IMG/VR virus record: IMGVR_UViG_3300022666_000034
Location: 1 to 44,423 of that record
Source: a virus
Taxonomy: Duplodnaviria; Caudoviricetes
Strand: one strand, 5' to 3'
Length of the DNA: 44,423 bases
The notes beneath the pieces were generated by a model, which saw only the letters and a list, made by a program, of their open reading frames with translations, did no database searches and was not told where the DNA came from. This document shows positions 1 to 33,148 of the stretch, piece after piece (within the stretch, counting starts at the first letter, position 1; each line of letters starts with the position of its first letter). The position numbers and the translations under genes are program-made.

Positions 1-127
1 GAAGTCGATAACAGTGTTATAACAGTGTTAAGCAGTGTTATAACAAACGATAACACCGTTATAACAAACGATAACACACCTATAACCAGTAGCAGTAGCA
101 GTAACAGTAGCAGTAACATAGAATCTA
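1..127. repeat. Terminal direct repeat copy 1 (identical to 44297-44423), likely assembly circularisation overlap
   Basis: Exact 127-bp identity between the two ends; it falls inside a gene. Confidence 0.95.
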
Positions 128-1293: not shown

Positions 1294-1405
1294 ATATAAC
1301 GGCTACGCCCTGACCGGCGCGGCGAATAACAGAGAGGAGACATTATGAGCAATGCAGCGGAAACAGCAGAGAGATCCGCGCCCGAGTCCAGGGACGTGGT
1401 TATGC
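1294..1405 (-). repeat. attC-like site A (112 bp; loop contains the RBS and ATG of the next gene)
   Basis: ATATAAC...CCCTGACCGGCGCGG / CCGCGCCCGAGTCCAGGG-ACGTG-GTTATGC. Confidence 0.75.
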
Positions 1406-1662
1406 AAATCGATGTGGCTTTCGGAGACCCGGCGCCAAATCGCATGTTTTCTCCCTGGCAGCACTACATTACGAAATTTCTGACGTTCTCCAAGTCGGTC
1501 CCGTGCGCTCATTGCGGACGGAAAGGGATGCGTCACTGGACACTGTTGAAATTTTTCCGAGTCATGGAGGAGGGTGCATTTACCCTGAAGCCCTCCGAGC
1601 AAGAATATCCGCCTCTAACTCCGGTATGCACGAAGCATATCCTCTCGGAGTCAAAGGCATAA
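1345..1662 (+). CDS. Hypothetical Zn-binding cassette protein
   Basis: GAGGAG RBS; CAHC motif; the TAA stop is part of the GCATAAC box. Confidence 0.75.
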   Translation: MSNAAETAERSAPESRDVVMQIDVAFGDPAPNRMFSPWQHYITKFLTFSKSVPCAHCGRKGMRHWTLLKFFRVMEEGAFTLKPSEQEYPPLTPVCTKHILSESKA

Positions 1663-1709
1663 CGATAGTGAGGCGTCACCAGCTTGTCTGGTGCCGCCGA
1701 TGGTTATAC
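1657..1709 (-). repeat. attC-like site B
   Basis: GCATAAC...GGCGTCACCAG-CTTGT-CTGGTGCCGCC..GTTATAC. Confidence 0.8.
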
Positions 1710-1730
1710 AGCGGTTTTGAATATCCAGCA

Positions 1731-1875
1731 GGCTGTCTCGCTTGCACGGCGGATTAGGGGAGTAGTGGCGAGTGTTCCCGGCTGCTACTCAAATTCGATG
1801 ATGCCCACCGTCTGAAACCAACAGAGGAACCCGGAGAGACAGCCAAAACAACGACACGCCGGGAGGCAGCCCGGC
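1731..1875 (+). ncRNA. Putative structured RNA or leader inside cassette 2
   Basis: GGCTGTCTC (1731-39)/GAGACAGCC (1836-44) enclose a GAGTAG/CTACTC hairpin; a GCCGGG/CCCGGC hairpin follows at 1858-75. Confidence 0.35.
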
Positions 1876-1893
1876 ACATTAAACGGAGGCGGT

Positions 1894-2253
1894 ATGCAGC
1901 TCAGAGACGATCAGCTTGAAGCACTGCGGCACATGCTCGGCATAGATGATCCGAGTGTTAAGGAGCCGAAGTCGTACCGAAACTATTACTGTGCCTGCAA
2001 AAATGACTCGTTGATGAATGGTCTGCGGCATTTGGGATTCGTCCGGCTGTACCGAGTCACAGACGATTATGACTATTTCACGGCCACTGAAACGGGTATT
2101 GCAGCGGCTCACGCCAGCCACAAGAAAATCAGGTGGCCGAAGGCAAAGCGCATGTACCACAAGTTTCTGGACCTGAGTGATTGCTGGCCCGACCTCACAT
2201 TCAGGCAATTTCTCACGGACCCGGAGCTATTGGAAATACGGAGAGCTGTATAA
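1894..2253 (+). CDS. Hypothetical cassette protein
   Basis: GGAGG RBS; QLEALRHMLG...YRNYY motif recalled from phage hypotheticals; stop in the GTATAAC box. Confidence 0.8.
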   Translation: MQLRDDQLEALRHMLGIDDPSVKEPKSYRNYYCACKNDSLMNGLRHLGFVRLYRVTDDYDYFTATETGIAAAHASHKKIRWPKAKRMYHKFLDLSDCWPDLTFRQFLTDPELLEIRRAV

Positions 2254-2302
2254 CGGCCAGGCGTTTGACCAGCTTTCGGGCTGGTCGGAACGCTGGTTAT
2301 GC
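2248..2302 (-). repeat. attC-like site C
   Basis: GTATAAC..GCGTTTGACCAGC-TTTCGG-GCTGGTCGGAACGC.TG.GTTATGC. Confidence 0.85.
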
Positions 2303-2323
2303 CCTTCGATGGGCGGGGAGGAA

Positions 2324-2530
2324 ATGGTGGAGGTAGGTCAAAAGCTCACGAGCCGAGGTTTTATCAACTGCCCTGAGTGCGAGGCTCTAGTAAAACATGT
2401 GCATTCGGCGCAACAAGACAAACTTTTCCTGTCTCGAAAATTACAGGCCATTCGCGCAATCTGCACAACTGACCATGAGGATAAATTACAATTCATTGCC
2501 CGAGTCCTGAAAGTTTTGGACGGGGCGTAA
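2324..2530 (+). CDS. Hypothetical cassette protein (68 aa, CPEC motif)
   Basis: GGAGG RBS before ATG 2324; stop in the GCGTAAC box. Confidence 0.7.
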   Translation: MVEVGQKLTSRGFINCPECEALVKHVHSAQQDKLFLSRKLQAIRAICTTDHEDKLQFIARVLKVLDGA

Positions 2531-2638
2531 CGGCTGGTGGATGACCGCCAAGGGAGGGAAACATGAATAGGCATGAACTGAATGAAGCGGCAAAACCACT
2601 GGGAGAAAGAAAAGGTGCGGTCGATTCGTTGGTTATAA
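2525..2638 (-). repeat. attC-like site D (114 bp; loop contains the RBS and ATG of the Lar-like gene)
   Basis: GCGTAAC-8nt-GATGACCGC ... GCGGTCGATT-CGTTG-GTTATAA. Confidence 0.75.
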
Positions 2639-2835
2639 AGTCTTGTCCGTTCTGTGGGGCAACCGATGATTTTGGCATTGGGCGCGGAACAGAAGACAGC
2701 GAGGGGTTCCCAACCTATCTGTATTGTGCATCATGTGGGGCGCAAGGCCCGTGGGTTTACACGCGAGACAACTCGGTTTTTACTTGTACCGCTATTGCTG
2801 CGGATAAGACCGGCTGGAACCAGAGAGCCTTATAA
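2563..2835 (+). CDS. Lar-family restriction alleviation protein
   Basis: KSCPFCG...YCASCGAQGP...WNQR signature of Lar-like zinc ribbons. Confidence 0.75.
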   Translation: MNRHELNEAAKPLGERKGAVDSLVIKSCPFCGATDDFGIGRGTEDSEGFPTYLYCASCGAQGPWVYTRDNSVFTCTAIAADKTGWNQRAL

Positions 2836-2895
2836 CGCCAAGGGTAACCGGTTGCGCGGCAGTTTGCGCAATCCGCATTGACCCGCTGGTTAGCC
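2830..2895 (-). repeat. attC-like site E (canonical spacing on the minus strand)
   Basis: Minus strand reads GGCTAAC-5nt-GGTCAATG...GGTTACC-6nt-GTTATAA, matching the R''-L''-L'-R' layout with the extra C at L'' position 4. Confidence 0.88.
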
Positions 2896-2913
2896 GATTT
2901 TATTGGAGGATTT

Positions 2914-3345
2914 ATGTCTGAACAGAACGAATGGATAAGCATAGATGACGCTCGTTTCCCGCTGGAAAAATACAAGGGGGACGAGATTGCAATACGGACA
3001 AAAGCCAACAATGGTCGGTGGATATACCAGATTGCCGTTGTTGATGGCGATGGAAAGGTTGCGATTGACCCCTGCGTGATGTGCTCGCAGTGCGGTGGGA
3101 CTCTGCAATGGAAACCGCACGCCTGGAACCCGTTTTCAAAAATGCCGATGGAGTGGAAACCGCTGGGAAAATTTATTGACGCTGACCGCAGGGTAGCCTC
3201 GTTCAAGGCGGAAGCAGAAGCTAACTACAATCGAGCACTGGAAGCTGAGGAATTATTGTACCTATTTTATATCGACCGCGACAAAAAAGCGGAAGAAGCG
3301 ATTATCAACTTTGTGCAAGATGGGCTTGATAAGGAGGGGTTATGA
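2914..3345 (+). CDS. Hypothetical cassette protein (EWISIDD N-terminus, CxxC)
   Basis: GGAGG RBS before ATG 2914; ATGA overlap with the next gene. Confidence 0.75.
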   Translation: MSEQNEWISIDDARFPLEKYKGDEIAIRTKANNGRWIYQIAVVDGDGKVAIDPCVMCSQCGGTLQWKPHAWNPFSKMPMEWKPLGKFIDADRRVASFKAEAEANYNRALEAEELLYLFYIDRDKKAEEAIINFVQDGLDKEGL

Positions 3346-3839
3346 GCTGGGGAGAACTACAGTGTACGCATTACGGAAATTGCAACCATGCGCCAACCAT
3401 GGCGACCTGCAACAAGGAATGCGGTTTCTTTTTGCAAAAATTCAACTTTGAACCAGTGCGGCAACCGATTGGGTTTGAAATACCTGAGAATGGAACTGAC
3501 GACGGCAAAACGCCCTACAATGGAAAGGATTACCCAATTCACAGCTCTGGGCCGTGGGCTGTGACTTCCGGGATTGTGCCTGACCGCAACGGCCGGTTGA
3601 TCATTGAGGACTGCCACGGGAACCCGGTATGCGCAACCTCTGCCAAGGGTGTGCAGGGTCAAGTGCTGATCATGGAGGCCAACGCCAAAATTATTGCCGC
3701 CGCGCCTGAAATGCTGGAGGTGTTGCGATGGCTGGATGCGGAAATGGACTGCCGAGATGATGATTTCGGAGGAGCGCTGTTTTCCAGAGGAGATTTTGGG
3801 AGAGTGCGCCGGGCAATCAAACTGGCAATGGAAGGCTAA
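3342..3839 (+). CDS. Hypothetical mosaic phage protein
   Basis: HSSGPW...EANAKIIAAAPEML motif common in phage early proteins; Cys-rich N-terminus; stop in the GGCTAAC box. Confidence 0.8.
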   Translation: MSWGELQCTHYGNCNHAPTMATCNKECGFFLQKFNFEPVRQPIGFEIPENGTDDGKTPYNGKDYPIHSSGPWAVTSGIVPDRNGRLIIEDCHGNPVCATSAKGVQGQVLIMEANAKIIAAAPEMLEVLRWLDAEMDCRDDDFGGALFSRGDFGRVRRAIKLAMEG

Positions 3840-3886
3840 CGGCTTGAGGCTGACCCGTTCTCAGCGGGTCGAGCCGATGGTTATCT
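3834..3886 (-). repeat. attC-like site F
   Basis: GGCTAAC-8nt-GCTGACCCGT-TCTCA-GCGGGTCGAGC-CGATG-GTTATCT; single extra G in the right arm. Confidence 0.88.
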
Positions 3887-3900
3887 GATTGGAGGTTGAT

Positions 3901-4167
3901 ATGAGGGAAACACTTTGCATCTTTTTCGCAATTTCGCACTGGCTGAAATATCGCGGGTGCCCTGACTCGATTCCGTCTAGTCGCGGGTGGAATCGGTACA
4001 AACGACTGATAGGGTTGTGGGGGTTCTGGCCGGTGTTTCACGACACATGGCTGACCATTCTCCACGCTGTCGGAATCCACCGTTTTTTCGATTGGTCGAA
4101 CGATCAGCAGCGATATGTCGGCTATTGGAAACTCGGGAAACCACAGTTAACTTTTTTATTCAGATAA
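3901..4167 (+). CDS. Hypothetical Trp-rich cassette protein
   Basis: GGAGG RBS before ATG 3901; stop in the AGATAAC box. Confidence 0.7.
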   Translation: MRETLCIFFAISHWLKYRGCPDSIPSSRGWNRYKRLIGLWGFWPVFHDTWLTILHAVGIHRFFDWSNDQQRYVGYWKLGKPQLTFLFR

Positions 4168-4220
4168 CGCTTCAAGGCTTACCCGCCGTCTTTTCGGGCG
4201 GGTGGTGCCGCTGGTTAAAT
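4162..4220 (-). repeat. attC-like site G
   Basis: AGATAAC-8nt-GCTTACCCGCC...GGCGGGTGGTGC-CGCTG-GTTAAAT. Confidence 0.82.
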
Positions 4221-4236
4221 TACAAAGGGAGGATTT

Positions 4237-4653
4237 ATGACACTGGAACAGATACAAGAAAAAGCTGATTCATTTTTCGAGTTTCCGACTGAGAACAAAG
4301 ACCATGTGACTACTACAAGCGCCGTGCTGTTTGCCCGCGAGTGCTGTAAAGAGGCGATTGCAGGCAGGACGTATTTCCACTCAGATGAGGAAGTAGAGAA
4401 AGATCTTGAGTTCGCTTTCAAGAGATCGATGGTGTTGGCTAACATGTTGAAAATTCCGGTTCACGAATCGCCGAAAGTCACGGGAACAATTCTTGGGCTT
4501 GTCCGTGGGGCCGTGGAGCGGTTGCAGTCGAGGATTGCAGAACTTGAAGCCGCTATTCTCAAAACCCTCAACTAGAACGGCCATCTAGCGGACGGGGACG
4601 TATGCACCTTGATTGATTTAAAACGTGCAATGTCAACTTGGGAGCTAGAGTAA
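4237..4653 (+). pseudogene. Hypothetical cassette gene with an internal amber stop (ORF 4237-4575; frame continues to TAA 4653)
   Basis: After TAG 4573-75 the frame reads NGHLADGDVCTLIDLKRAMSTWELE and stops at the next attC-like box. Confidence 0.6.
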
Positions 4654-4716
4654 TCTAACGGCCTGGGCGGTGAACCGCCAGGCTTTATCGGGCGGCTTCG
4701 ACCGTCCTGGTTATAG
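4653..4716 (-). repeat. attC-like site H
   Basis: ATCTAAC..GGGCGGTGAACCGCC...GGCGGCTTCGACCGTCC.TG.GTTATAG. Confidence 0.82.
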
Positions 4717-4730
4717 TGCGAAAGGATACA

Positions 4731-5174
4731 GTGACACATTCTGACCTCGTAAAAATCGCTGAACGGTGGCTGATCGGCTCCCGGAAGTGCGGGGCGGTCA
4801 TTACCGAATTGGTCACGCTTGGCATGGAAACGCCGGACGCTATCGGATTTCGTGATGGATCATCAACGCTGGTCGAGTGCAAGGCAAGCCGTTCTGATTT
4901 TCTGGCCGACGCCAAGAAGCTCTTCCGTCGCAACCCTTGGATGGGGATGGGAACATACAGATTTTACCTCTGCCCTGCTGGCATCATCACCGCCCAAGAC
5001 CTCCCTGAAAAGTGGGGGCTGATATGGGTCAACGAAAAGGGCAAACCTCGGATGCAGATAGGTCCGAAAGGCAACATCTGGAGCGCACAAGAGGCGTTCC
5101 GCTTCGATGAGAAAAACCATCAGGCGGAACAGATGATTTTGGTTAGTGCCCTGCGTCGGCTACAAGGCCGGTAG
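4731..5174 (+). CDS. PD-(D/E)xK nuclease-like protein (MmcB-like)
   Basis: ETPDAIGF...LVECKASRSDFLAD...YRFYLCPAG...LPEKWGL motif. Confidence 0.75.
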   Translation: MTHSDLVKIAERWLIGSRKCGAVITELVTLGMETPDAIGFRDGSSTLVECKASRSDFLADAKKLFRRNPWMGMGTYRFYLCPAGIITAQDLPEKWGLIWVNEKGKPRMQIGPKGNIWSAQEAFRFDEKNHQAEQMILVSALRRLQGR

Positions 5175-5178
5175 AGCA

Positions 5179-5238
5179 CTATAACGGCAAGGGTAAACAG
5201 CGAGCGAAGCGGAGACGGACACCACGCCGTGGTTATGC
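5179..5238 (-). repeat. attC-like site I (arms poorly complementary; degenerate or chimeric)
   Basis: CTATAAC and GTTATGC boxes are present and match the neighbouring cassettes; the internal stem is weak. Confidence 0.6.
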
Positions 5239-5262
5239 GTTTCCGCCACTTCCGGGGGGAAT

Positions 5263-5661
5263 ATGGAAATCAAGAAGTGGGTAATGCACATCATTGGACC
5301 GGATGAAATTCACGAGATGCCGGATGAAATCACGGCTCTCCGCGAGGCCAACAAACTGAACAGGCGGATTGTGAAATGGAGAGAAGAAGACCCGTCGCCG
5401 CATGATCCCTTCATGGTTGCGCTGGTAATAGAGCAGACTGTCAGCCCCCGCAAAGCTCCGTGGTGCGACTTCGCTGGAAACCCCATTTTTGAGGGCAGCA
5501 CCATACAGCATCCCTCCGGTGAGCGCGGCACGGTTGTTTTTCTGGCAGATGAAGAACAGGCAAGCGACCAATGGAGAGTTGATTACGGCGGCGAGGATAA
5601 ATCTCGGCTCTGCCTCCAAATCAACGACAAGGGGCAGGCGGTGGTAGTAGAGACCGCATAA
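5263..5661 (+). CDS. Hypothetical cassette protein (YopX-like C-terminal half)
   Basis: DFAGNPIFEGSTI motif; stop in the GCATAAC box. Confidence 0.75.
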   Translation: MEIKKWVMHIIGPDEIHEMPDEITALREANKLNRRIVKWREEDPSPHDPFMVALVIEQTVSPRKAPWCDFAGNPIFEGSTIQHPSGERGTVVFLADEEQASDQWRVDYGGEDKSRLCLQINDKGQAVVVETA

Positions 5662-5704
5662 CGCTGGAGCGCACCCGCCCGGCGGTGTGCGCGGCGGGTT
5701 AGGC
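5656..5704 (-). repeat. attC-like site J (last of the array)
   Basis: GCATAAC..GCGCACCCGCC/GGCGGTGTGCGC..GTTAGGC. Confidence 0.75.
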
Positions 5705-5714
5705 CATCGCCCGG

Positions 5715-5743
5715 AAAAAGAAAAGCCCCTCAGAAGAGGGGCT
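5715..5743 (-). terminator. Intrinsic terminator for the minus-strand operon
   Basis: AGCCCCTC-AGAA-GAGGGGCT stem preceded by an A-tract (U-tract on the minus strand). Confidence 0.7.
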
Positions 5744-6501: not shown

Positions 6502-6789
6502 TTAAGACCCAAGTATTACACGGCCCACTTCATCCGTGCTCACGAGCTCACTCCATGCCTTCAGAAAATCCCAGTCTGAGCAGGGAGCCAGCTGACTGTG
6601 GAGATGCTCGCGCAACTCATCATCCATAACGGCTCCGTACCTGTCTGCATCGCCCCTGCTAACGTCTTTTTTTGTCAATTCGCCAAGATTGCCAGTCCAA
6701 GGATTTTTTACGATTATAGGGGCATTGTTGTCATACTCGTACTCTTCGCCGTCGATATCGGCAATCGTCCTCCATTCTTCTCTTTTCAT
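6502..6789 (-). CDS. Acidic hypothetical protein
   Basis: MDDELREHLHSQLAPCSDWDFL motif; GGAGG RBS. Confidence 0.75.
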   Translation of the reverse strand: MKREEWRTIADIDGEEYEYDNNAPIIVKNPWTGNLGELTKKDVSRGDADRYGAVMDDELREHLHSQLAPCSDWDFLKAWSELVSTDEVGRVILGS

Positions 6790-6828
6790 TTCCCCACCTC
6801 CAAGCGCCGGCAACCGGCGCGGTTAGTA

Positions 6829-7332: not shown

Positions 7333-7430
7333 GTAGGGTAGAGTACGGCCCTAGGGTAGCTCCCGAAAAGAACGATTCCCTACGTTCCTGGGCCGAAAAC
7401 CTCATTAGGGCCGCACTATGGGAGGTGCAG

Positions 7431-31834: not shown

Positions 31835-32055
31835 TGCGCCACAGAAAGTGCGCCAAAGATGCGCCACTGGAAATAAAAAGGGGCTACGGAAATCTACCGT
31901 AACCCCTTGAAATTATGGCGGGCGGTGCCGGACTCGAACCGGCGACCCCAGGCTTCGGAGTTATAGGGCCGATCCCGTGGAGCGTTGCCAGTAGCGGGTT
32001 CACGGCTTCTTTCTCTGGCGCATTGCGCCACTGGATTTGCGCCCGAATTGCGCCA
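31835..32055. repeat. Integrase arm-type binding sites (TGCGCCA triplets) flanking the attP core
   Basis: TGCGCCA at 31835, 31849, 31860 and at 32024, 32038 (TGCGCCC), 32049; identical 14/11-bp spacing on both arms. Confidence 0.75.
31916..31960 (-). other. attP core: 3' half of a tRNA-Arg(CCG) gene
   Basis: Minus strand CTCCGAAGCCTGGGGTCGCCGGTTCGAGTCCGGCACCGCCCGCCA = anticodon loop, T-arm with GTTCGA, acceptor strand and CCA; no 5' half; adjacent to the integrase. Confidence 0.88.
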
Positions 32056-33148
32056 ACTCATCTTGTAGGTGCTGCGGCGTCAACGTCAAATACCGCTCAG
32101 TAGTCTTGATGCTGGCGTGACCGTATGCCAGTTGCAAAGCGCGGAGGCTGATACCGGATTGCAGGGCGTGGACTCCAAACGCATCGCGGAGGATGTGAGG
32201 GTGGAGAAGCGAAGGCGGATATCCGGACCTGGCCGCGCCCCTCTTTACTGGCTTCTTCAAGTCCTGATACGGCAGCTCTGTTTCCTTGTTGATCCATAGA
32301 TAGCCTGGCTTCCATGCCTTCCTGAGCCATGCCCGCATTTTGGGGTGTATTGGCATGGTCCTTGTCCGGTCGCCCTTCCCCTTCACGTATATCCACCCAT
32401 GCACGACATCCACCTGTTCGCCTTGCAATTTCAGAACTTCATTCTTTCGAAACCCCCCATAATATATCACTGCGAAGATGGACCGGTATACCCTGTCCTT
32501 GCCCGACAACGCCCGGAGGAACAGGAGGACAGACCGACGATCCGGAACGACCTTTTGCGGCGGCGCAACTTGCCGGGCGGTAAAGTTGCGGATCTTGAAG
32601 TTCAGCGGTTCCGCTAGACATTGTTCCGGGTCCGTCATCCAGCGGATAATTGCCTTCAGATAATTCAACTCCTTCTGGATCACCCTCTTGCCTATCGGCT
32701 TTCGCGCTTTCGCCTGTTCTGGCGTGTCTTCTCCAGGTAATTGCCCGTGGTGGCCGGGAAGGTACGTGTCGCTCATCCGCTTTGACTTGTACTGCTCTAT
32801 ATATGCAGGGGTGAGGTGAGATGGGCGCATATGGCCGAAAAATGGCTTTAGATGGCGATTCCAGACAATGAGGAAATCGGCGTATGTGGTCTCTGACGTG
32901 CTATGGCGGTAATATTCGCAGAAGTCCGGCCATACCTGTTCTATCGTCGGGGCAAGTTTGGCGGCGGGCTTTTTAGCGGTCTTGAGTAGGTCGGCGTAGT
33001 AGGCAAGTGCTTCGGCGCGGGTGCCGCGAAAATGGAAATATTCCCGTTTATTCGAGGGTTTCCCGGTTTTAGGGTCTTTCTTTCGCCCCTCCGGATACCA
33101 TCGAATAATCCACGCTCCGGGATATTTGGGATGAGGGGTTATTGACAT
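32000..33148 (-). CDS. int: Tyrosine recombinase (phage integrase)
   Basis: Catalytic R (GFRKNE), K (KGKG), HxxR (HILRD), H (YGH), Y (TTERY). Confidence 0.93.
   Translation of the reverse strand: MSITPHPKYPGAWIIRWYPEGRKKDPKTGKPSNKREYFHFRGTRAEALAYYADLLKTAKKPAAKLAPTIEQVWPDFCEYYRHSTSETTYADFLIVWNRHLKPFFGHMRPSHLTPAYIEQYKSKRMSDTYLPGHHGQLPGEDTPEQAKARKPIGKRVIQKELNYLKAIIRWMTDPEQCLAEPLNFKIRNFTARQVAPPQKVVPDRRSVLLFLRALSGKDRVYRSIFAVIYYGGFRKNEVLKLQGEQVDVVHGWIYVKGKGDRTRTMPIHPKMRAWLRKAWKPGYLWINKETELPYQDLKKPVKRGAARSGYPPSLLHPHILRDAFGVHALQSGISLRALQLAYGHASIKTTERYLTLTPQHLQDELAQFGRKSSGAMRQRKKP

Follow-up and report, generated by a model that had tools for sequence, protein, structure and literature searches.

Probable integron-type cassettes with reversed gene–attC polarity in an integrase-less phage array

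Integron-type arrays in bacteria and phages

Classical attC sites are bounded by the boxes RYYYAAC and GTTRRRY and fold with a bulged G and a T or other base about six pairs off; the R box pairs over 9-11 nucleotides (nt), as described for most cassettes (PMC2727003), and crossover takes place on the bottom strand between A and C (PMC2727003, PMC5027507). Cleavage of the bottom strand falls within its 5' AAC, and this strand selectivity has been described as a device that places genes in sense behind the cassette promoter Pc (PMC5027507). Where at least two attC sites share a strand, spaced by under 4 kb, with no IntI nearby, they are called an attC site cluster that lacks an integron integrase (CALIN; PMC4889954). 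Here we describe such an array at positions 1,294 to 5,704 of IMG/VR record IMGVR_UViG_3300022666_000034, a Caudoviricetes genome of 44,423 nt that was analysed over its whole length and is referred to as the window. Its ten attC-type sites are named S0-S9 in order, while L denotes fetched loci, X contig sets from other samples and G genomes. The array shares the classical features listed above, in sites of 49-114 nt and with the bulged G in six of the ten; unlike in classical cassettes, the hairpin precedes each gene, which is on the bottom strand, there is no Pc, attI or intI in cis, the left spacer is often 7-9 nt long, and the bulged base is a C or is absent in four of the ten sites.

Among described systems, the 17 phage CALINs of Qi et al. 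2023 (PMC9892861) resemble the window in being attC clusters without IntI that hold small accessory genes, and some of them are reversed; the available text of that paper gives no breakpoint mapping, and the window array differs in having ten sites and start signals in two of its loops. IntI1 recombined five of the six phage sites tested, the bottom strand better than the top, and the same preference holds for the two H101 sites; P12002L attC1 was the one site that the assay did not verify (PMC9892861). When the published bottom-strand oligonucleotides are placed in the phage records, those for H101 attC1 and attC2 and for P12002L attC1 fall on the coding strand ahead of the genes (H101 is L162 25920-27980, P12002L is L160 29240-30060); the TJE1 array has canonical polarity. 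The TJE1 and H101 arrays are called typical of bacterial arrays in the text, the available parts of which leave a reversed gene–attC polarity unstated (PMC9892861), and because one published example is described as typical in this way, such arrays may carry wrong annotated unit boundaries. In P12002L the methyltransferase cassette closes at a bare AAC where a divergent attC2 is annotated. A literature search, conducted mostly without subscription papers, did not find reversed gene–attC polarity stated as a phage trait.

Two further systems invite comparison. Inverted-integrase integrons (PMC4889954) likewise have intI and cassette genes on one strand, but there it is intI that is flipped relative to attC, whereas in the IntI-bearing phage arrays considered below only the genes are flipped, and intI, attI and attC keep their usual arrangement. 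Insertions at attG and single attC sites lacking an integron integrase (SALINs) indicate that short GWT sites can be seeded with cassettes by an IntI that acts in trans (bioRxiv 10.1101/2022.09.11.507474). Seeding of the attG type is a possible origin of integrase-less arrays, and L024, L026 and L032 do close at a bare AAC; it would leave unexplained both the reversed gene–attC relation and the gene-less terminal hairpin S9.

A ten-site array of reversed cassettes

We read the array as nine integron-type cassettes without an integrase of their own, each exchanged at its left TAA|C and carrying its attC hairpin ahead of the gene, with exchange likely mediated by an IntI from outside; we give this reading a probability of about 0.82. 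With ten sites in 4.4 kb on one strand and no IntI, the array fits the definition of a CALIN, and it works like an integron array, its modules ending at the AAC/GTT crossover. It departs from canonical cassette polarity, in which a top-strand gene is followed by its own attC, and it is not a complete integron, since neither an intI with the characteristic insertion nor an attI at the array end is present. The sites are as follows.

1294..1405, plus strand: S0, attC-type hairpin (bottom strand = plus) with a bulged C; long loop with ribosome-binding site and ATG (1345) of gene 1
1657..1709, plus strand: S1, hairpin with a T/C mismatch and no clean bulge; polarity call weak
2248..2302, plus strand: S2, hairpin with bulged G; the X7 match 2250-2836 begins at its left box
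2525..2638, plus strand: S3, hairpin with bulged G and T six pairs apart; start signals of the Lar-like gene (ribosome-binding site, ATG 2563) in the loop
2830..2895, plus strand: S4, hairpin with three extra-helical bases (G, C, T); widespread family common to several cassettes
3834..3886, plus strand: S5, hairpin with bulged G; opens a unit also seen in L014, X8, X9 and X19
4162..4220, plus strand: S6, hairpin with bulged G
4653..4716, plus strand: S7, hairpin with bulged G 10 nt ahead of GTT
5179..5238, plus strand: S8, folds poorly; probably chimeric, with arms from two families
5656..5704, plus strand: S9, last hairpin; no gene behind it, polarity template tied, no bulge at the usual place

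TAAC begins at 1297, 1660, 2251, 2528, 2833, 3837, 4165, 4656, 5182 and 5659, and GTT at 1399, 1703, 2296, 2632, 2889, 3880, 4214, 4710, 5232 and 5698. The outer boxes TAAC and GTTA are present in 10/10 sites (pattern RYYYAAC ... GTTRRRY), and a simple motif scan of the whole genome returned just these ten on the plus strand and one stray call on the minus strand. The hairpin anatomy of attC, with an L box, an unpaired spacer and extra-helical bases on one arm, is clear in S0 and S2-S7, weak in S1 and S9 and lacking in S8.

Polarity is first of all legible in the hairpins. Read along the coding strand and scored with a strand-neutral template, nine of the ten window sites have the bulge on the right arm (weakly in S1 and S8; S9 is tied at 3.5 vs 3.6). 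Of 47 distinct related sites, left after 13 automatic calls had been dropped by eye, 42 have it on the right arm and two on the left, and three are tied. The controls are five arrays (Vibrio, two Shewanella, TJE1 and Rctr41k; 31 sites kept of 41 automatic calls, ten dropped by eye), and here the bulge is on the left arm in 30/31. The base following AAC is G in all ten window sites and 46 of the 47 related ones; it is A in all 31 controls. With the bottom strand cut at its 5' AAC and the coding strand being the bottom strand, the crossover falls at TAA|C. The sequence-only reading had pointed to an extra G and a 5-nt spacer. The spacer is borne out, the right one measuring 4-5 nt and the left one 6-9 nt in the nine sites that fold, but the G is less general than claimed: with registers set by hand, an unpaired G 9-10 nt ahead of GTT is found in S2-S7 only (6/10), S0 having a C, S1 a T/C mismatch and S9 no bulge, while S8 hardly folds. 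In the related loci the automatic template places a G bulge at 9 nt in 16 of the 42 right-arm calls. The plus strand also has the lower folding energy in nine of the ten sites and an excess of G over C in all ten, which is weak evidence because the whole coding strand is G-rich.

Polarity can also be read from where shared sequence stops. Eight contig sets from other samples were compared, with 24 of 55 and 23 of 47 pieces listed; a piece was counted if it included 50 nt or more of gene and had a loose end at a site. X3 was left out as coming from the same study as the window's likely source, and X19 repeats the L014 context. Among the pieces listed, 10/10 right-hand ends stop no more than 3 nt from the closing TAA|C and continue into unlike sequence, and five of the six left-hand ends at a site begin at the left box. 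X7 holds window 2250-2836 with one difference between other neighbours, and X8, X9 and X19 hold window ~3837-4169 with 0-1 differences. Whole units at least 99% identical, with both ends at left boxes, link window 3837-4169 to L014, L014 to L017, L018 to L024, and L019, L030 and L032 to each other; L017 differs from L014 by one extra unit inserted at TAA|C. None of the fetched-locus units compared has a right-hand end that carries the downstream hairpin. The S4 hairpin, of which 24 copies have both boxes (25 hits), has 19 clusters of upstream flanks against eight of downstream flanks. Breakpoints in other samples thus agree with the earlier proposal that crossover takes place at the left TAA|C and that the hairpin travels upstream of its gene. 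Crossover at the right-hand G|TT, one of the two outcomes named beforehand as speaking against the proposal, is contradicted by them. That the coding strand is the bottom strand is supported alike by bulge side, breakpoints and the attI-anchored arrays described below.

Box pairing marks cassettes, not their polarity

The signal from which inverted polarity had been deduced was that the right box of each site is the reverse complement of the left box of the next. The ten sites, nine box pairs and nine unit coordinates were all correct as written, and so was the claim that this pairing exceeds that with the site's own left box. With the invariant TAAC/GTTA set aside, right box n agrees with the left box of site n+1 at 25/27, 37/45 and 41/54 positions for flanks of 3, 5 and 6 nt, and with its own left box at 9, 12 and 13. 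The next site beats the own site in all nine units at 5 nt, and in eight of nine, with one tie, at 3 nt. In an exact permutation over 362,880 assignments, 6, 2 and 3 reach the observed value for the three flank lengths (p=1.7e-5 at 3 nt). In related loci 41 units give 103/123 for the next site vs 45/123 for the own site, one unit being miscounted and matching in full at the right coordinate.

As a sign of inverted polarity, however, the pairing does not serve, and as a proof of it we discarded it. It is symmetric, an R box paired throughout is restored under either crossover model, and the canonical control arrays show it equally (75/78 for the next site vs 35/78 for the own). Since it fits both models and canonical arrays as well, it marks a unit as a cassette and not as inverted: the headline pairing signal is ordinary cassette biology, and the reversed polarity is right for other reasons.

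Mechanism and alternative explanations

Three features outside the array are listed first.

7..86, no strand assigned: iteron-like repeats, putative origin, within the gene of the replication initiator (from 44054 over the circular end to 480)
32000..33148, minus strand: ordinary phage integrase without the IntI insertion; unlikely to be the cassette recombinase
5724..5743, minus strand: terminator-like hairpin closing the convergent leftward operon, directly past S9

In the proposed cycle the coding strand would fold when single-stranded, an IntI from the host or from another phage would cut between A and C, and attC × attC recombination, from which circles have been described in integrons (PMC2727003), would release a circle with a fully paired R box, which could explain the match between box n and box n+1. 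Such circles might then be taken up again at a phage attI or a different attC, and in phages with IntI new cassettes would land promoter-distal, next to intI. The cassette genes are likely transcribed from the upstream replication operon; upstream of the array no sigma-70 promoter scored above chance. A rightward fork from the iteron-like repeats would make the plus strand the lagging-strand template, a placement that favours excision (PMC5371416, PMC13108822); the direction of the fork is an assumption, and GC skew, which tracks gene direction in this genome, does not allow it to be read.

Several observations weigh against this reading. The related loci were mostly fetched with the S4 pattern and are therefore a biased sample; some left spacers, at 7-9 nt, are longer than the 5-6 nt that is usual (PMC5027507), and S1, S8 and S9 are atypical. 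Four genes keep their right box under a different upstream hairpin at 73-97% identity (L017 vs L019/L030/L032, 89%; L014 vs L016, 88%; window vs L007, 73%; X11 record 6, 97%). Neither a circle nor an excision joint was found in the eight contig sets, in which contigs drop rare forms. The genome has neither IntI nor an attI-like motif, so that the enzyme has to be inferred, and the ten cassette proteins of the window have no tblastn match in 80 IntI loci, which puts the link to IntI arrays one step away. A crude stop-codon orientation test of the IntI loci, noisy in high-GC DNA, gave 30 inverted, 15 canonical and 45 ambiguous calls; it was replaced by PHROG matches (below). The four genes with exchanged hairpins, together with the chimeric look of S8, suggest that hairpins are sometimes swapped, by rarer top-strand or homologous events. 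In S8 (5179-5238) the left arm resembles the S4/L021-1171 family, and the right half, 5203-5235, is identical to an X17 site that has the matching left arm. A closing box for S9 was also sought, but the sole GCCTAAC downstream (7920) sits inside an open reading frame (ORF) and was taken as chance.

The best surviving alternative, though an unlikely one, is that the same reversed cassettes are moved by a tyrosine recombinase other than IntI, either the phage's own integrase or the short Xer-type enzyme of a helper phage. The phage does encode a tyrosine integrase, and the long left spacers are unlike IntI1 substrates; yet this integrase scores 46.5 bits against TIGR02249 (cut-off 265) and lacks the IntI insertion, no PF00589 match is present in any of the array-bearing relatives G001-G003, of which one is 100% complete, and S4-like hairpins and shared cargo are found beside true IntI. 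Less probable again is the view that the hairpins are mere boundaries for homologous or illegitimate recombination, or a frozen relic inherited en bloc. An Erf protein and an exonuclease are encoded by the phage, hairpin families are shared and S8 resembles a loop-to-loop chimera, but the ends fall no more than 3 nt from a 4-nt core flanked by unlike hairpins, and units with 0-1 differences lie between different neighbours in several studies. Canonical polarity, with crossover at the right-hand G|TT and a gene that carries its downstream hairpin, would fit the cross-unit pairing equally well, a stop codon inside TAAC in seven of nine units as in canonical cassettes, and four matches that begin at a right box, but is very improbable given that 0/10 listed right-hand ends, and none among the fetched units, pass through the downstream hairpin and that bulge and spacer asymmetry mirror 30 of the 31 controls.

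Integrases of related phage arrays

Exchange by an IntI supplied in trans is the preferred reading, and such enzymes do occur in phages with related arrays, which makes those phages a likely source of the helper. No IntI scored above the cut-off in any of the nine related records, and three attI-like motifs from phage IntI loci, searched with up to two mismatches, have no match in the window genome, where the array closes with a hairpin. A search of viral contigs yielded 246 IntI relatives, of which 80 were kept; all eight phage-contig integrases tested pass TIGR02249 (404-479 bits, cut-off 265). In 26 loci, the ORFs between the attC sites and intI have PHROG matches in 24 of 55 cases on the bottom strand and in 0/56 on the other, a test that scores phage-type genes, not bacterial-type cargo, and from which two duplicate ORFs were left out. 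The matched cargo comprises methyltransferases, PAPS reductases and a Mom-like gene. These arrays close at a conserved hairpin-less AAC, an attI-like site directly upstream of intI whose box flank matches the right box of the last cassette at 3/3 positions in nine of 11 loci; as no hairpin is present at this site, the one ahead of the last gene must belong to that gene. The complete integrons on phage contigs (L059-L072, L080-L159) have the same reversed cassettes and related hairpins, such as the S4-like one at 5546 in L081. Downstream of the array they retain intI and an attI-like site, where the window has a terminal hairpin and no IntI. Cargo of L001, L016 and L017 is common to IntI-phage arrays at 69-72% DNA identity.

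In these same IntI loci (e.g. L081 2868-8936, L088 4970-8936, L143 5661-8927) the reversed cassettes read towards intI; the loci often lie directly ahead of a phage integrase and have at least two attI motif families. Bare, hairpin-less AAC unit ends occur at L024 1532, L026 671, L032 634 and L015 8360, the first two being alike and both resembling the attI-like sites of L143, L144 and L159. An IntI above the cut-off is found in two of 121 genomes of the order of G006. In G028 an integron whose canonical cassettes carry ereA, an lnu(F)-like gene and a class A beta-lactamase gene (L050 14200-19071) lies between phage-tail-like ORFs and so does not serve as a clean chromosomal control; its IntI is 99-100% identical to those of viral contigs L056 and L057, whose cassettes differ. 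In virus Rctr41k (L052 4680-9500, KX853513) an IntI-like gene with the insertion is followed by five canonical attC sites on the same strand; this array is not among the Qi et al. 2023 tables examined. L124 has a class 1-like IntI that falls among high-GC phage IntIs (~58% identity) in a poorly rooted tree. Because the root was set at the midpoint and one long row is frameshifted, we draw no direction of transfer from this tree.

The nine cassettes

The units delimited by successive left TAA|C sites are as follows.

1300..1662, plus strand: cassette 1, ORF 1345-1662, function unassigned; an X17 piece (1360-1664) stops at the closing box
1663..2253, plus strand: cassette 2, 190-nt leader and ORF 1894-2253 (phrog_13561, no function assigned)
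2254..2530, plus strand: cassette 3, ORF ~2324-2530; in X7 alongside cassette 4, in changed order
2531..2835, plus strand: cassette 4, ORF 2563-2835 with a PF14354 match (28.9 bits, cut-off 28.6), a Lar-like restriction alleviation protein
2836..3839, plus strand: cassette 5, with one gene at 2914-3345 and another at 3342-3839 (phrog_1273); related sequence in L014, L017, L023, L025 and X4
3840..4167, plus strand: cassette 6, ORF 3901-4167; unit 99.7-100% identical between other neighbours in L014/X19 and X8
4168..4658, plus strand: cassette 7, ORF 4237-4575; X8 and X11 pieces stop at the closing box
4659..5184, plus strand: cassette 8, ORF ~4731-5174 (phrog_631; MmcB-like is a lead only)
5185..5661, plus strand: cassette 9, ORF 5263-5661 (phrog_19209, no function assigned)

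The stop codon lies inside TAAC in seven of the nine units, and the loops of S0 and S3 carry the ribosome-binding site and ATG of their own gene. The leader of cassette 2 (1703-1893) is long and non-coding, with a 13-nt inverted repeat (1773-1785/1866-1878) and no Rfam match; L008, a relative of this cassette, has no hairpins. The cassette 8 gene (4731-5174) occurs in cassette form in L001 and L007 and without hairpins in L002-L006, at 62-86% protein identity overall and 84-86% between the two forms, a possible case of cassette birth or domestication that offers a handle on how either comes about.

Implications for phage gene exchange

Where integrons place genes in sense behind Pc, a reversed phage pool shows that polarity is set when the cassette is made and not by the enzyme. 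Such arrays also offer a testable route to phage mosaicism, the site-specific exchange of single accessory genes, and the genes exchanged include the Lar-like gene here and methyltransferases in related arrays. As a tentative proposal, which we hold somewhat less probable than even, phages may run a mirror-image integron economy in which accessory and anti-restriction cassettes are moved by a phage or host IntI and added promoter-distally in early operons, the reversed polarity acting as a firewall that lets both sides share a recombinase while their pools stay mutually silent. If so, host anti-phage cassettes would enter phage arrays in antisense, and phage cassettes would enter attI-Pc in antisense.

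Phage and array context

The window comprises the complete circular genome of a phage, with a 127-nt terminal repeat, and its 63 ORFs scanned include replication, packaging, head, tail and lysis genes, a repressor and an integrase; the phage is likely temperate. The best named relative of the integrase is from Oryzomonas japonica (51%), on which basis one might guess at a host in the Desulfobacterota. The replication initiator is followed by a DUF6475 gene and then by the array, which stops before the terminator of the convergent operon. In L009, which has a relative of the DUF6475 gene, no array lies behind that gene and one site lies elsewhere. Searches with the array by blastn against 50,697 phage records, with Rfam inside the array and with PADLOC (0/13 proteins) returned no match.

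Other elements lie close by. A purine-rich stretch ahead of the array (1161-1230) is also present in an X8 contig, there directly before a TAAC. The convergent operon past the array has an AcrIC5-like match at 6502-6813 on the minus strand (PF22147, 31 bits, cut-off 27), and an int-alpA RNA (RF02996, 47.2 bits) lies at 7344-7410, at the start of a rightward HNH operon. A gene-less terminal hairpin followed by a terminator-like stem recurs in three arrays: window 5656-5743, L014 8532-8620 and L017 5364-5450.

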